Source of the DNA: Candidatus Levybacteria bacterium RIFCSPLOWO2_02_FULL_37_18
Lineage (GTDB): Bacteria > Patescibacteriota > Microgenomatia > Levybacterales > UBA12049
DNA length: 64,000 nt
Direction of reading: 5' to 3'
NCBI GenBank assembly: GCA_001784115.1
Contig: MFPD01000009.1
Span: forward strand, 7,520-71,519
Both the position numbers and the translations under genes were made by a program. This document shows, one piece after another, positions 7,334 to 13,364 of this stretch (position 1 is its first letter; each line of letters opens with the position of its first letter). The notes under the pieces were generated by a model. The model was not told the DNA's origin and made no database searches. It saw only the letters and a program-made list of their open reading frames with translations.

Positions 7334-7787
7334 TGTGTTATGAATAGCTCCTTGAAAGTGAAGAGAAAGGTCCTGCAGTGCAGGATTTGATCTTTATAGA
7401 AAAACTACTCTTTGACCATTAGTACGGGTAGGCTTAACACTTTACAGTGCTTCCACCGCCCGCCTATCAACGTCGTAGTCTACAACGGGTCTCTCCCCCG
7501 ATTAAATCGGGGAACGAGATATTATCTTGAGGTTTGCTTCCCACTTAGATGCTTTCAGCGGTTATCAGTTAGGAATATAGCTACTCAGCGCTGCCCTTGT
7601 AAGGAACAACTGACACACCAGGGATTCCTCCAATCCAGTCCTCTCGTACTAGGATCGGATCCTCTCAAATCTCGAACGGTTATCCAGGATAGAGTCCGAA
7701 CTGATTCACATCGTTCTTAACCCAGCTCGCGTACCGCTTTAACGGGCGAACAGCCCGACCCTTGGAAGCTTCTCCACCTCCAGGATG

Positions 7788-8619
7788 CGATGCACATACT
7801 CTTTTGTTTCCAAAAGTGCAGACTATATCATCACCCCGAGTTACTCTCGGGGGTTGGCATATGATAACTCGTGTATTTTTTTATCTTGAGCTATCTCATC
7901 CGTCAGTTGACGGATTCAGTCGTTACGGGGTCAAGCTCTAGAAGACAGATGACAGAATACAGAAAACCTGCCTACCGACAGGCAGGCAGGACAGATTGCA
8001 GATAAAACAGATCAAAAACAGAAATTCTTAATAGGAGTATGTTTTCCAGTTTTTAATAAATTGCTGAAGTTGTTTAGATTCAATTTTATATCTATCAATC
8101 AGAATGTCACACAGCTTCTGATTAATACGACTAATTCTTTTTGCGAGAATTTTTACTACTTGAACATGAGTAATGAGTTCATCTGATGTTCCCATTGCTA
8201 TTTCAAGAAAACGCTTAAACTCTTTTTCAGATCTTTTTTTGCCAAATCCTTCAGCAATATGCGCTGGAATTGATTCTCCGCATTCGATTAGTTGACCTTT
8301 TAGTTTTCTATGACTCTCTGGAATTTGATTTGCTAAGTCATAAACTAGTGGCAATGCTTCCAAAGCATTCTTGTAAACTTGAAGATCTGTTACCTCTCGA
8401 ATCATGAGAATAGCGTATCATACTTCCGTACTTTCTGTTCTATCCGTTATCCGTCTTCTGTTCTCTGTCATCCGTCCTCAAAAACCGACTTCCCACGGTA
8501 TTGTCCATTGACTTTATCATAACTAGAGAAGATTCATTTAGTCAAGAGGAGTTCACCGTTATTAGCCAAATTTGCTTCAATAATTACTTATTGAAGGGCC
8601 CAAACGCTATTTGCGTTTT
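7788..8619 (-). mobile_element. group I intron-like insertion in 23S (832 nt) carrying a four-helix-bundle ORF
   Basis: Flanking exons read GATGTCGGCT | ... | CATCCTGGAGG, which matches E. coli 23S GTCGGCTC|ATCACATCCTGGGG. A group I S-element-like motif GATGATATAGTCTGC lies ~60 nt from the 3' boundary. Long ACAGAA-word inverted arms flank the ORF (7940-8000 and 8420-8480). Confidence 0.5.
8028..8405 (-). CDS. four-helix-bundle protein (TIGR02436, 23S rRNA intervening-sequence protein family)
   Basis: 125 aa with EALPLVYDLANQIPESHRKLKGQLIECGESIPAHIAEGFGKK...FKRFLEIAMGTSDEL, a family signature. It is encoded inside the 23S insertion. Confidence 0.7.
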   Translation of the reverse strand: MIREVTDLQVYKNALEALPLVYDLANQIPESHRKLKGQLIECGESIPAHIAEGFGKKRSEKEFKRFLEIAMGTSDELITHVQVVKILAKRISRINQKLCDILIDRYKIESKQLQQFIKNWKTYSY

Positions 8620-8867
8620 AGCCGACATCGAGGTGCCAAACCGCCACGTCGCTGTGAACGCTTGGTGGCGATTAGCCTGTTATCCCCGGGGTAGCTTATA
8701 TCCGTTAAGCTCCGTCGCTACCACTAGCGTGCGGAGGATCACTAACACCTGCTTTCGCATCTGCTCGACTTGTAGGTCTCGCAGTTAAGCTGGCTTATGC
8801 GTTTGCGCTATCAGTCCGATTTCCATCCGGACTTAGCCAACCTTTGTACAACTCCGTTGCAATGTAG

Positions 8868-9692
8868 GCAATATTGTTAAGAAAGTTAATCTAATTTGTA
8901 AAGAAAAGAAGTAACAATAAACGGAGATATCAACTTCTTTAGTCTACTAAAAGATGAGGCACGAATATAAATTTCTATACCATCAATTTGCCGTCTTGGA
9001 ATTGCTTCCAATCCAAACTTTTCTTTTAAAACCTGACAAAGAAGAGTAACCTCTTCGATGGTAAAATTATGAGTACATATCAATTTCCCCCAACACTCTT
9101 TTGATTTATACGATCCATCATCCATAAACCAGATAGCGAGTCCCAATTCTGTTAAAAGTTCATTTATATTTTTGGGTATTATCTTGGTTTTTGCTTGATA
9201 GAACAATTCTCTAAAGACAAGAAAGTCGGACAAGCTTAAAGTAGTGAAACCAAAACGCTCAAAGTTACCTCATCGGCATTTTTAATGCTATATTCTACTT
9301 TTAGTCTTGCTGACTTTCTATTTGGAGAAAGCTCGATATGACCATCTCCTAGAATAAGACCCACTAATACTTCCTTTTGTAAATTAGAAAGTTTTAGAGT
9401 CTTTTTATATTCTTCTAAGAGGGTTTGCCTCATCCTAGACACTTTCTATCCGAGCATTTCTGTCGGATTCTCATAGTCGCCTATGAGTTCAGACCATATC
9501 ATACTCTAGTATTAGAGCCCAACATATAGTCGTTGAGGGATCCTGCGCATTTAGCTGAAGGACTTCCCTGCTGATTAACTGCACCAGAAAGATTATCACT
9601 TCTATTTTATCAGAAGTACTTCTGGATACACCAGTTGTTCCAGCATATAGTTGGTTTGCAAATAGGAATTACTTCCTAATGGACCCATAATT
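8868..9692 (-). mobile_element. group I intron in 23S domain IV/V carrying a LAGLIDADG homing-endonuclease gene
   Basis: The 23S sequence is interrupted between GGGGAGGTTGACTCAA and CCTACATTGCAACGGAGTTGTACAAAGGTTGGCTAAGTCC. An S-element-like motif GTATGATATGGTCTGAAC sits at 9478-9495. The ORF lies in the 3' part. Confidence 0.55.
8886..9442 (-). pseudogene. LAGLIDADG homing endonuclease split into two ORFs (68 aa + 115 aa) by a TAA stop and a 1-nt frame change at 9233-9238
   Basis: Motif 1 LVGLILGDGHIE lies in ORF 9236-9442 and motif 2 LAIWFMDDGSYK in ORF 8886-9233. The two frames differ by one base. Confidence 0.7.
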
Positions 9693-9800
9693 GAGTCAAC
9701 CTCCCCAGTTAAACTGCCCGCCAGACACTGTCCCTTCGCCGGATTTTTATGCGGCAAAAAAGTAATGATTGCTCATTTCAAAGAGAGGTATTTCACTTTT

Positions 9801-10942: not shown

Positions 10943-11139
10943 ACCATAGAACAGTTATAGTTACTGCTGCCGTTCACTGGAGCTTTCGCCGCGAGCCTCC
11001 CCCTTGCGAGGGTCACCCACAACGATTAACTTACCAGCACTGGGCAGGTGTCAGCCCCTATACGTTAGCTTTCGCTTTTGCAGAGACCTATGTTTTAGAT
11101 AAACAGTCGCTAAATAAACTTTTGCTGTGGCCTCGCGCG

Positions 11140-11298
11140 GAACGCAAGAAAATCCTAATTTCAAAATCATAAATCCTAAATAAATTACACTTTCAAAAAT
11201 CCAAATTTACAAACGTTTTAGAATTTTGAACATTGTAATTTTGATATTATTTAGAATTTAGATATTAGTGCTTAGAATTTCCTTGTGCTCCGCACAAG
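11140..11298. repeat. AT-rich ~160-bp intervening-sequence-like insertion in 23S (helix 63 variable region), copy 2
   Basis: Near-identical to 9801-9968 and also preceded by CCTTGTGCGGAGCACAAGG on the rRNA-sense strand. The flanks match the E. coli ACTTCGGGAGAAGG...CTGTTTATTAAAAACA region. Confidence 0.6.
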
Positions 11299-12489
11299 GC
11301 AGGGCATCTCCCAAAGGTTACGCCCAGTTTTTTTGCCGAGTTCCTTGATCTGCTGTCTCCCGGTCGCCTTAGTCTTCTCGACCAACCCACCTGTGTCGGT
11401 TTACGGTACGGAATAAAAGAACACTCCTCACGAATCTTTTCTCGCGGACTGAAAGCTTAGAATGTTGTCCCCGCGTTTGACGCGGGAACTTCCCATCGCC
11501 ACTCAGTTAGACACTCTGACGGATTTTCCAATCAAAACTACTTTGTAACTTGGTGTCGCATATAGCGGCAAATCCTCTTCCACTCTGGTCAATCCTTGAG
11601 TTATAACGCATTCTCTTATGTAGTCGAATATCAACGACTTGTCCATCGGGTTACCCCGAGATTAGCTCGGAACACCCTTAGGGCCGACTCACCCTCCGCT
11701 GACTTACAGTGCGGAGGAAACCTTGGGTTTTCGGCGTCCCGGTTTCTCACCGGGATCTCGCTACTCATACCGGCATTCTCACTTCGTATCGCTCCACCAT
11801 GCCTTACAACACAGCTTCGCGGCAATACGAACGCTCCCCTACCGTCCGCCAAAGGCGGACCTCCATCTTCGGCAAAAGGCTTAATCCTCGTTACATTTTC
11901 GGCGCTACAAACCTGCCACGTTAGACGTGGACATCCTCCAGTGAGCTGTTACGCTTTCTTTAAAGGATGGCTGCTTCTAAGCCAACCTCCTGGTTGTCTC
12001 TGGATTGTAACTTCCTTCAAAACTTAGCCTTTATTTAGAGGCCTTAGATGGGAGTCTGGGCTGTTTCCCTTTTGACTGATCAGCTTAGCCCGACCAGCCT
12101 GACTAGAACGAATATAATCTAGTATTCGGAGTTTGATTGGTTACGACAGCTTGCGCCGCCGAAGACCATTCAGTGCTCTACCCCTAGATCATTGTATCGT
12201 CCCGCTATACCAAAATATATTTCGGGGAGAACCAGCTATCTCCGGGTTCGTTTGGCATATTGCCTCTAACCTCAAGTCATCTCAACCCATTGCTACGGAT
12301 ACGAGTGCGGGCCTTCCCCCGACTTTCATCGGGGTTCACCCTGCTCAAGGTTAGCTCACCCGGTTTCGGGTCTATCCCAATGTACTAAGTAGCTCGGTTA
12401 GAGCTTGCTTTCACTACGCCTCCGCCAGAAACTGGCTTAAGCTTAAACGCACACTAAGATAACTCACCGGTTCATTCTTCAATAGGCAC

Positions 12490-12650
12490 GAGATCACCAG
12501 AGGACAGAAGACAGAATAACGGAAGACGGATATCAGATGACAGAGATACAAAACATCAAGATTTTAATCCTGATCTTCTGTCTTCTGTTTCTCTGCAATC
12601 TGTCCTCTGACTTCTGTACTCTGTCCTCCGGCTCTCTCTGCTTGTCAGCC
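12490..12650. repeat. helix-25-region IVS-like insertion made of ACAGAAGACAGAA / TTCTGTCTTCTGT words forming a long imperfect hairpin
   Basis: gaggacagaagacagaataacggaagacgg...ttctgtcttctgtttctctgcaatctgtcctctg, immediately upstream of the conserved CCCTCACGGTACTAGTTCACTATCGGTC 23S block. Confidence 0.5.
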
Positions 12651-13364
12651 GACAATTTCAGGTCTATTTCATCCCCCTCCCGGGGTGCTTTTCACCTTTC
12701 CCTCACGGTACTAGTTCACTATCGGTAGGTCTTGGTATTTAGTCTTGGAACGTGGTCGCCCCAGATTCCCACAGAGTACTTCCTCCATGGTACTTAGGTA
12801 CAAACTATCAGTGTCTTACATTTCGCATACAGGACTTTCACCCTCTATGGTCAGCTATTCCAAGCTGTTCTGCTATATAAAACACCAAATATCGTCTGCC
12901 CTGCAACCCCGAGCTGAGCTCGGTTTAGACTTCTCCCTTTTCGCTCGCCGCTACTTAGGGAATCTCTATGATTTCTTTTCCTCCGGGTACTTAGATGTTT
13001 CAGTTCCCCGGGTACCCTACCAAACACTATTATCAGCCAAAGGCTGAACTTTTATGTTTGGTTCCCGCGTTTGACGCGGTCGATTGCTCGATTCGGAAAC
13101 CGCCGGATTACAGGATTATGACTCCTACCCGACGAGTATCGCCGCCATATGCGTCCTTCCTCGGCCAAAACCTCCTAGGCATCCATTATCGGCATTATGA
13201 GTAGTCTTTTATAAAGACGCTCTACTCCATCCTGATTTCGATACTCAGGATGAAGTCCTTCTCTTCACTTGTCAAGGAGCGAATTGCGATAGCAATTCTC
13301 ATCTCTTTTATGTTTTTGAATAAACTCTCCTCAATACCAGGAGGGCTTGTTCAAAAACATAGGG

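Follow-up and report, generated by a model that had tools for sequence, protein, structure and literature searches.

The 23S rRNA gene in the window (the whole 64-kb stretch of DNA analysed here) occupies positions 13209..7412 of the minus strand (5,798 nt with its insertions included; Rfam RF02541), and alignment to E. coli rrlB reveals within it seven large insertions, consisting of four group I introns and three long hairpins, which account for ~2.9 kb of extra sequence. On a joint reading of the results presented below, it is very probable that this is a functional and probably single-copy 23S gene that carries four decayed group I introns and three hairpin insertions. The four introns break up regions of domains IV and V that are essential for function, and they would need to undergo self-splicing with ligation of the exons before a working ribosome could be formed; splicing, fragmentation of the rRNA and expression of the IVP protein described below are all inferred from the sequence. 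An earlier note on this DNA had proposed four group I introns together with three or four IVS-like insertions, and the E. coli alignment and the Rfam searches bear out the four introns and, for the insertions, three IVS-like hairpins at the tips of helices. With the covariance models that the note had pointed to, the Rfam LSU model recovered the 23S gene and Intron_gpI (RF00028) matched all four introns with scores of 63.8, 51.6, 39.6 (E=1.3e-7) and 26.6 bits (E=0.0011), two of these four matches lying below the gathering score of 50 bits. A canonical P1 with a U.G pair, together with a terminal G, could be read from the sequence for the introns after 1931, 2262 and 2511. The core motif AGAGACUA...GAUAUAGUCC, which had been claimed for all four introns, is present in its literal form in two of them, whereas the remaining two contain AACGACU...GAUAUGGUCU and AACGACU...GAUAUAGUCU.

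The exons of this gene are complete, well conserved and collinear with E. coli rrlB from position 1 to 2904, and the LSU_rRNA_bacteria model aligns to the minus strand as two segments (13209..10816, 1386 bits; 10074..7412, 464.7 bits). The gene is preceded by a tRNA-Ala(UGC) gene (13437..13363, minus strand; ARAGORN and Rfam) and followed by a 5S rRNA gene (7233..7118, minus strand; RF00001, 67.3 bits), both of which would be included with it in a single transcript unit; the Rfam scan detected no 16S gene in the 64-kb window. A putative pre-23S processing stem (5' strand 13255..13279, minus strand; partner strand 7373..7348), read directly from the sequence, pairs CUCCUUGACAAGUGAAGAGAAGGAC with GGACCUUUCUCUUCACUUUCAAGGAG (~23/26 complementary). 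The best named relatives of FtsH are from Candidatus Levybacteria/Microgenomates (77-79% identity), which agrees with the CPR host given in the earlier note and indicates that the host is most likely a Levybacteria-like (Microgenomates, CPR/Patescibacteria) bacterium.

The 827-nt insertion after U2511 (8619..7793, minus strand; E. coli alignment), for which the RF00028 score is 26.6 bits, is a true group I intron. It possesses the P7.1/P7.2 helices and is subgroup IA-like, and metagenomes yielded 19 relatives located at this site. When 14 cores were compared, 95.7% of the positions in P1-P9 were paired, as against 34-44% when the partners were slid, and compensatory changes were observed in 41 of the 67 pairs, and the long-range P3 helix covaried in four of its five pairs; none of 500 shuffles in the control reached any of the observed measures. 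All 14 cores have U.G at their 5' splice site, and the terminal G is likewise invariant. Two of the relatives at this site are 257-263 nt long and contain no ORF. The insertion in the peptidyl-transferase region and the four-helix-bundle protein encoded by it, both noted earlier, are thus upheld, although its length is 827 rather than 832 nt.

The P6 loop of this intron contains an IVS-type cassette (8486..7935, minus strand), which is comprised of a purine-rich 5' arm, the IVP ORF and a complementary 3' arm. The arms prolong P6 as a duplex of ~55 bp (-93.7 kcal/mol for the arms alone; z = -9.7 against mononucleotide shuffles), and the 3' arm includes a GC hairpin that resembles a terminator, with a U-run behind it (7990..7967), an odd feature for the interior of an rRNA transcript. 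The ORF (8405..8028, minus strand) encodes a protein of 125 aa that is predicted to be an Avd-like four-helix bundle of the 23S_rRNA_IVP family, based upon its matches to PF05635 (63.8 bits; cutoff 33.8), TIGR02436 (63.2 bits) and PDB 2GSC (1.3e-9); its homologues form 55 clusters with 45-99% identity. At exactly the point where the cassette lies in the window, 17 of the 19 relatives at site 2511 have a LAGLIDADG_2-type ORF of 195-225 aa (that of one further relative is disrupted), and the start of this ORF (MIKSMDNTVGSR), which overlaps P4-P6, is still present in the intron studied here. These observations indicate that the IVP cassette has replaced the LAGLIDADG gene that usually occupies the P6 loop of 2511 introns. 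The 5' core of the intron shows 85% identity to the 2511 intron of L142, which bears an endonuclease gene, and its P6 insert shows 81% identity to the insert that a 16S intron in L052 has in P6; this chimeric identity is what points to recombination with a paralogous intron already bearing the cassette as the likely route of the swap. Introns that follow 16S ~1406/1407 also have the cassette in their P6, and free-standing copies of it are present between protein genes in L002 and L005.

The intron after U2262 (9693..8869, minus strand; 825 nt), which the E. coli alignment had placed at 9692..8861 after ~2263, gives 51.6 bits with RF00028 at 9703..9470, and its P1 (GACU/GGUC) and terminal G at 8869 were read from the sequence. 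An intron of ~825 nt with a LAGLIDADG homing-endonuclease gene had been reported here; the intron stands, but the LAGLIDADG_2 gene in its 3' part is broken by a deletion and a frameshift, as its ORFs (9442..9236 and 9233..8886) match PF03161 at profile positions 1-34 and 74-167, each in a frame of its own. The two compact introns, described previously as ORF-less, ~370-380 nt long and lying in the 1900-1930 region, are in fact 380 and 398 nt in length and are located after 1931 and 1951, and only the second of them is without an ORF. The intron after U1931 (10942..10563, minus strand; E. coli alignment; RF00028 39.6 bits, E=1.3e-7) has P1 CUAUGGU/GCCAUAG with U.G at the splice site, P10 AGCG/CGCU and a terminal G at 10563, and its ORF (10781..10611) matches LAGLIDADG_1 at profile positions 1-22 of 102 only, a 22-residue remnant. 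An exon reconstructed earlier for one of the compact introns, GGUAGCGAAAUUCC, has to be replaced by GGUAGCGAAGUUCC. The boundaries of the intron after position 1951 (10542..10145, minus strand; 10543..10146, after 1950/51, in the E. coli alignment; RF00028 63.8 bits) were set from 12 same-site relatives (exon ...GUCGGGU|, IGS GCCCGA, ...G|(A/G)AGUUCC). Its core is paralogous to that of the 2262 intron and its 3' tail is AT-rich and composed of word repeats. The nucleotide at position -1 of this intron is C10543 in the window, but U in all 12 relatives. Work on the Tetrahymena ribozyme indicates that 5' cleavage should be strongly slowed when C-G takes the place of the wobble pair U.G at the cleavage site, and therefore the 1951 intron may splice poorly, or C10543 may be an assembly error. 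Because an intact endonuclease gene is retained in none of the four introns, all of them appear to be at a late stage of the homing cycle.

The three hairpins lie directly in rRNA helices, each of them at the end of a surface helix. The insertion in H25 (12630..12501, minus strand; ~130 nt, between E. coli positions 540 and 550) is built from ACAGAA/UUCUGU words, as had been noted earlier, and contains no ORF; a 156-nt stretch around it (12645..12490) folds as one hairpin (-77.2 kcal/mol, z = -8.5). The near-identical AT-rich twins of ~165 bp previously recognised in the L1 stalk and helix 63 are confirmed as two copies of a 167-nt element (direct repeat D1) with 95% identity over 167 nt and 98.7% over 153 nt. 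Copy A (9968..9802, minus strand) is in H78 of the L1 stalk, where Rfam shows 141 extra nt in the loop (-59.6 kcal/mol, z = -9.2), and copy B (11298..11132, minus strand) replaces the tip of H63 at E. coli ~1709-1727 (-69.8 kcal/mol, z = -10.3). A full-length relative of the H25 insertion is present in the 16S genes of L055/L056 (70.6% over 136 nt). The H25, H63 and H78 hairpins seem to be copies of two word-repeat palindromic families that are present elsewhere in this and related genomes, with few copies in the 64-kb window and with some of the similarities being short word-rich matches. Members of the families to which both hairpin types belong were also seen in other rRNA helices and in intergenic spacers, and one protein-coding gene carries such an element in frame.

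The three hairpins would either persist as expansion segments or be excised by RNase III like classical bacterial IVSs. That they are permanent expansion segments of the mature ribosome is a serious possibility, somewhat less likely than not: each insertion prolongs its host helix without breaking it, and H25, H63 and H78 are the helices that bear the eukaryotic expansion segments ES7, ES27 and ES30. The bacterial IVS sites known to us are H25 and H45, with H63 and H78 not among them. Against permanence, RNase III acts well on long, near-perfect duplexes of 50-70 bp, one of the three helices (H25) is a classical IVS site, contig L060 has a related AT-rich element in both of the classical IVS sites, H25 and H45, and short insertions at such sites are read as IVSs in a survey of CPR bacteria (Tsurumaki et al., 2024, J Bacteriol; PMC11270868).

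For the 827-nt insertion, a classical ORF-bearing IVS that is cleaved without religation would account for its long inverted arms, for a protein of the very family that defines such IVSs, and for the low Rfam score of 26.6 bits. This is extremely unlikely, as it would mean a harmful break in the conserved core (H90, after U2511), the IVS-like portion is limited to the P6 loop, the sequences on either side of that portion fold as a complete group I intron with the invariant U.G and terminal G, and the 257-263 nt relatives are a bare ribozyme; the covariation test on the 14 cores contradicts a cleaved, unligated IVS. It is also highly improbable that the 23S gene is a pseudogene in decay, or a chimera that the assembly put together from repeats. 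The degenerate endonuclease genes, the non-canonical C at the 1951 splice site, the near-identical 167-nt repeat pair and the absence of a 16S gene nearby could be viewed in this light, but the exons are complete and collinear over their whole length, tRNA-Ala, 5S and a complementary processing stem flank the gene, and each 167-nt copy is in its own correct rRNA context. Further, CPR genomes usually possess a single rRNA copy, and insertions are carried by 82% of 348 CPR 23S genes (PMC11270868).

The earlier note regarded the density of insertions as high even by CPR standards, which is not upheld. The CPR survey records up to 16 insertions per 23S gene and an insertion total of up to 5,750 bp (mean 1,327, SD 1,112; PMC11270868), as against 7 insertions and ~2.9 kb here, which puts this gene above the mean in length yet well short of either maximum, and by extra sequence this gene ranks 5th of 35 metagenomic 23S genes (maximum 4,579 nt), a sample that is biased because every member was chosen for carrying a 2500/2511 intron. 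This 23S gene is a typical, upper-range example of an already surveyed CPR phenomenon and not an outlier. It does not differ in kind from the surveyed genes, in which group I introns cluster in domains IV-V (1931 and 1952 being among the frequent sites), LAGLIDADG_1, LAGLIDADG_2 and ORF-less forms as well as degenerate ORFs with large deletions are reported, and short non-intron insertions occur at IVS sites such as H25 (PMC11270868). Occasional 23S_rRNA_IVP ORFs are also reported at intron site 23IS11, where LAGLIDADG predominates (the positions of sites 23IS9-11 are not given), but a discrete hairpin cassette around the IVP ORF is not described in the survey, nor are the short insertions linked there to genome-wide repeat families (PMC11270868).

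The hairpin families resemble Rickettsia palindromic elements and bacterial MITE-like repeats in being short, palindromic, dispersed and, in one gene, in frame, but terminal inverted repeats, target-site duplications and a transposase are not demonstrated for them. Those elements are short, palindromic and non-coding, and their copies are scattered through intergenic DNA and genes for structural RNAs, with some lying in frame within protein-coding genes. The introns of Coxiella are Cbu.L1917 and Cbu.L1951, of which the second carries a LAGLIDADG gene, in contrast to the four introns here, none with an intact endonuclease gene. According to Warrier et al. (2016; PMC4990558), the 23S gene of Coxiella burnetii likewise combines group I introns with an IVS encoding a PF05635-type protein; that IVS is excised by RNase III, and its decaying ORF is apparently untranslated in vivo. 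The ORF-bearing IVS of Coxiella lies directly in rRNA helix 45, whereas here the corresponding module of hairpin and ORF occupies the P6 loop within an intron and the hairpins located directly in rRNA helices are ORF-less. Lastly, a single cyanobacterial LSU gene can also hold several group I introns that encode single-motif LAGLIDADG proteins, at sites shared with organelles, but there are at most three such introns, each with an intact endonuclease gene, in comparison to four here with decayed or replaced ORFs plus the hairpin insertions (Haugen et al., 2007; PMC1995217).

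The 23S rRNA gene of the window lies on the minus strand, where Rfam recovers it in two pieces (13209..10816 and 10074..7412), and with all insertions included it is 5,798 nt long. In a long-gap global alignment it is collinear with E. coli rrlB over positions 1–2904 and carries seven insertions longer than 100 nt. A tRNA-Ala(UGC) gene (13437..13363, minus) is located upstream of it and a 5S rRNA gene (7233..7118, minus) downstream. No 16S gene was found in the whole 64-kb window and, as it is absent from this rRNA operon, the 16S gene must be unlinked. A promoter-like sequence, TTGACA-17-TAAGAT with TG ahead of it, is present at 13618..13590, upstream of the tRNA-Ala, 23S and 5S genes. 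The nearest named relatives of the FtsH protein (49997..48108) are from Candidatus Levybacteria and Microgenomates (77–79% identity), which identifies the host as a member of the CPR.

The 23S coordinates and the insertion inventory of the earlier note are borne out by Rfam and by the rrlB alignment, and its four group I introns are likewise confirmed by the Rfam Intron_gpI model (RF00028), which has a hit in each of the four large domain IV and V insertions. These introns are referred to here by the E. coli 23S position preceding each of them. The 1951 and 2262 introns score above the gathering score of 50 bits (63.8 and 51.6 bits, respectively) and the 1931 and 2511 introns below it (39.6 bits, E = 1.3e-7, and 26.6 bits, E = 0.0011). 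The boundaries of the 1931 intron (10942..10563, minus; 380 nt) and the 2511 intron (8619..7793, minus; 827 nt) were derived from the rrlB alignment and junction reading, and those of the 2262 intron (9693..8869, minus; 825 nt) from junction reading, the alignment placing it at 9692..8861, after ~2263. The ends of the 1951 intron (10542..10145, minus; 398 nt), which the alignment placed at 10543..10146, after 1950/51, were set by comparison with 12 metagenomic 23S genes having an intron at 1951. In all 12 of these relatives the 5' side reads ...GUCGGGU↓, the guide GCCCGA and the 3' end ...G↓(A/G)AGUUCC (arrows mark the splice sites). Each of the four introns of the window ends in a terminal G (omega-G; G10563, G10145, G8869, and G7793), after which the sequence restores conserved rRNA. 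P1 carries a U.G wobble at the splice site in three of the introns, namely 1931 (CUAUGGU/GCCAUAG, with an adjacent P10, AGCG/CGCU), 2262 (GACU/GGUC) and 2511 (GGCU/GGCC, lengthened by an internal hairpin). The introns at 1931, 1951, and 2262 are paralogous to one another, their P4–P6 and P7–P9 segments being nearly identical (repeat families D2–D7).

The 1951 intron is the one that lacks this wobble. Its P1 (UCGGGC/GCCCGA) forms, but with a C-G pair at the cleavage site, the last exon base being C10543 (minus), a position occupied by U in all 12 intron-bearing relatives and in 15 extracted intron-less genes. Replacement of the U.G pair by C-G at the cleavage site should slow 5' cleavage markedly, as is established in ribozyme enzymology. 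This C may reflect genuine variation, decay or an erroneous base call. An alternative 5' splice site with a U.G pair 15 nt downstream (GCGGGU↓CACG) was rejected, because its use would leave 15 extra nucleotides in helix 71 and all of the relatives splice at 1951. The site is a natural experiment on the stringency of the U.G requirement in vivo.

As the Rfam evidence by itself was weak for the 2511 intron, metagenome contigs were scanned with the pattern GATATAGTC-N(15-45)-CATCNCATCCTGG. This pattern was intended for 2511 introns, but of its 121 matches about 100 were position-2500 introns belonging to this family, and 20, including that of the window, were at 2511. The relatives at 2511, 19 in number, comprise two bare ribozymes (257 and 263 nt), 16 introns of 829–913 nt with a LAGLIDADG_2-type ORF of 195–225 aa in the P6 loop, which is disrupted in one of them (L122; longest ORF 107 aa), and one intron of 1,286 nt that also has a LAGLIDADG_2-type ORF. 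For the 2511 intron only, the fold was examined by aligning 14 cores from which the P6 loop had been trimmed. A model with 12 helices, P7.1 and P7.2 included, leaves 95.7% of the cells paired, compared with 34–44% in slid controls in which the partners were moved by 1–3 columns. Compensatory changes were observed in 41 of 67 pairs, the long-range P3 helix covaries in four of its five pairs, P7 is invariant, and all 14 cores have the U.G pair at the 5' splice site. A pairing between the 5' exon (AUGUC) and J8/7 (GAUAU) proposed by RNAalifold was judged spurious, and the invariant P7 was substituted for it before counting. These observations support a full group I fold for the insertion, with the P3/P7 pseudoknot and a subgroup IA-like character, and the covariation analysis rules out that the 827-nt insertion is a plain IVS.

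The endonuclease genes of these introns are degenerate. In the 2262 intron the LAGLIDADG sequence is divided between ORFs 9442..9236 and 9233..8886, which differ in frame and match positions 1–34 and 74–167 of the PF03161 profile, positions 35–73 being missing. The 1931 intron contains a stub (…NWIVGFVDGEGCFSVSIF…) corresponding to only positions 1–22 of the 102 in PF00961, and an uninterrupted full-domain LAGLIDADG ORF is present in neither intron. The earlier description of a LAGLIDADG homing-endonuclease gene must hence be amended to one with about 40 PF03161 positions deleted and a broken frame, and the 1931 intron, which had been called ORF-less, carries a PF00961 remnant. That all of the endonuclease genes are defunct is as expected late in the homing cycle, and degenerate ORFs matching the decay seen here are reported in a survey of CPR rRNA genes (Tsurumaki et al., 2024; PMC11270868).

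In the P6 loop of the 2511 intron, a hairpin cassette (7935..8486) carries a different ORF (8405..8028, minus) that encodes a 125-aa 23S rRNA intervening sequence protein (IVP). It matches PF05635 (63.8 bits, cutoff 33.8; profile positions 2–104 of 106), TIGR02436 (63.2 bits, cutoff 24) and PDB 2GSC (1.3e-9), and has a conserved leader, UAUGAUACGCUAUUCUC-AUG. Avd, an accessory protein of DGRs, is a relative of the PF05635 family (PMC10053308). Among the 20 introns at 2511, that of the window alone has an IVP ORF. The beginning of the ancestral endonuclease gene is also still there: its initial codons (MIKSMDNTVGSR; MESMDNTVGSR in L142, the closest relative of the intron) overlap the P4–P6 core. 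The 5' core is 85% identical to that of L142, a 2511 intron with an endonuclease gene, and 52% identical to that of L052, a 16S intron with an IVP ORF; the 552-nt P6 insert is 81% identical to L052 and ~60%, which is the noise level, to L142. By these comparisons the identity of the intron is chimeric along its length. The cassette arms lengthen P6 to a duplex of ~55 bp (arms alone −93.7 kcal/mol, z = −9.7) and, since they continue P6 as a duplex, the cassette should leave the ribozyme fold undisturbed. An endonuclease gene in an intron loop thus appears exchangeable for an IVP hairpin cassette, which goes beyond the published survey.

Two further features of this intron were noted. The 3' arm of the cassette contains a GC hairpin (CCUGCCUGCC…GGCAGG) followed by UUUUCUGUAUUCUGU (7967–7990, minus), whose terminator-like score is odd within an rRNA intron; it is present in none of the cassettes of other contigs and recurs in an element within an exonuclease gene (45896–45925). 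A promoter-like TTGACT-18-TATGAT is located in the P5 extension (8516–8545, minus), and L142 has a similar TTGACT…TACAAT just 5' of its endonuclease ORF start. The number of promoter-like sites, 13 compared with 11.5 expected, is at chance level, and the 8516–8545 site is a lead only.

Homologues of the IVP protein formed 55 clusters with 45–99% identity; a contig look-up for the 99% identical one (cluster P0001) returned none. A scan of the genome collection yielded distant homologues only, from Berkelbacteria (58%), Uhrbacteria (47%) and, for the rest, mostly Bacteroidota and Nitrospirota. The whole cassette, arms and ORF, was found by megablast with 83–86% DNA identity in six metagenome contigs (L052–L057), where it lies in P6 of introns of the 2511 family that follow 16S ...CCGCCCGUC (~1406/1407). 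Such an intron extends over 6836–7582 in L052, others are present in L053, L054, L056, and L057, and L055 has two of them in tandem. These cassettes look like spacer DNA ~120 nt past the 16S gene because cmscan ended its 16S match before them; this placement was discarded, as alignment and direct reading put them in the 16S intron. Copies with similar arms are also free-standing between protein-coding genes in L002 (79% DNA identity) and L005, and no rRNA or intron core was found around either of them. Among the 120 contigs with 2500 or 2511 introns, an IVP-like ORF (28% identical) was detected only in L060, in another 23S insertion near position 2220. Aligned to E. coli, the 23S gene of L060 (minus strand) extends over ~6.0 kb, a little more than that of the window. 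Its insertions include one of 760 nt at 1951 and one of 455 nt near 2220, and its intron at 2511 is 868 nt long. The sparseness of IVP ORFs in these contigs agrees with the survey, in which four were counted among 968 23S insertions, group I introns accounting for two of them, at a LAGLIDADG-dominated site (PMC11270868).

The other insertions considered here, in helices H25 (12630..12501, minus; −77.2 kcal/mol, z = −8.5), H63 (11298..11132, minus; −69.8 kcal/mol, z = −10.3) and H78 (9968..9802, minus; −59.6 kcal/mol, z = −9.2), each consist of one long imperfect hairpin in place of the helix tip, as in an RNase III-processed IVS, where an extended hairpin replaces the apical loop. A 167-nt AT-rich element is present in both H63 and H78. 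Its two copies share 95% identity over 167 nt, rising to 98.7% over 153 nt, and its relatives (74% identity) occur in H25 and H45 of the L060 23S gene and also in L072. The H25 element shares ACAGAA/UUCUGU words with the cassette arms, and a full-length relative of it (70.6% over 136 nt) lies inside the 16S genes of L055 and L056. Copies of both the AT-rich and the ACAGAA families are thus dispersed over non-homologous sites in the manner of MITE- or RPE-like elements, some of the similarities within repeat families being short word-rich matches (E-values 0.005–0.45).

Related sequences were also observed elsewhere in the window. AT-rich word-repeat hairpins or runs (UCUAAA/UUUAGA, AAUUUUGAA) occur in or at the spacers at 57770–57880, 41590–41660, 31714–31818 and 20459–20500, the first being a shorter relative of the 167-nt element and the last a relative of the 1951 intron's 3' tail. 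A palindromic ACAGAA/UUCUGU element (45839–45948) lies in frame in a 5'-3' exonuclease ORF (46356..45241, minus), where it contributes ~50 extra residues (FQAFQNTEYRIQKTCLPAGRTDSGK…SPLE), flanked by GTLA and VIIVSGDRD, and breaks the Pfam 5_3_exonuc_N match in two. In this respect it is like the Rickettsia palindromic elements.

Judged from their sequences, the three helix-tip hairpins would be either excised by RNase III or retained as expansion segments. H25, H63, and H78 are also the sites of the eukaryotic expansion segments ES7, ES27, and ES30. The repeat families of these hairpins are found at rRNA helices that differ from genome to genome and, in frame, in one protein-coding gene; this bears on the origin of bacterial IVSs and is likewise beyond the published survey. 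Excision has a precedent in Coxiella, where RNase III is reported to remove a 23S IVS (PMC4990558). As to what these elements are, we tentatively raise a reading that we regard as possible but rather unlikely, namely that the hairpins and the IVP cassette are not rRNA-specific IVSs but undescribed mobile palindromic elements of Microgenomates, built from ACAGAA/UUCUGU or UCUAAA/UUUAGA words; our literature search for CPR palindromic repeat families returned nothing specific. For such mobile elements any tolerated stem-loop could be a landing site, and the sites could include rRNA helix tips, differing between genomes, as well as intron loops, spacers and in-frame positions in protein genes. 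The Avd-like IVP would be the cargo of an ORF-bearing form or possibly a mobility or processing factor. If this is true, the classical bacterial IVSs would represent one visible landing site of a broader class.

Between anchors at E. coli positions 189 and 2744, the 23S gene of the window contains 2,892 nt of extra sequence, which places it fifth among 35 complete fetched genes (range 345–4,579 nt), a sample biased toward intron carriers. In the CPR survey, insertions were found in 82% of 23S genes, with up to 16 per gene and up to 5,750 bp per gene (mean 1,327, SD 1,112), and 45% of them were classed as group I (PMC11270868). In view of these maxima and of the rank in our sample, the exceptional density of insertions claimed in the earlier note is unsupported. 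The exchange of an endonuclease for an IVP, the hairpins belonging to repeat families and the C at the 1951 site are details beyond the published survey, and none of them changes this classification: the gene belongs to a known class, of which it is a well-resolved example in the upper range, and its value is mainly that of a clean, fully annotated case of a well-documented CPR pattern.
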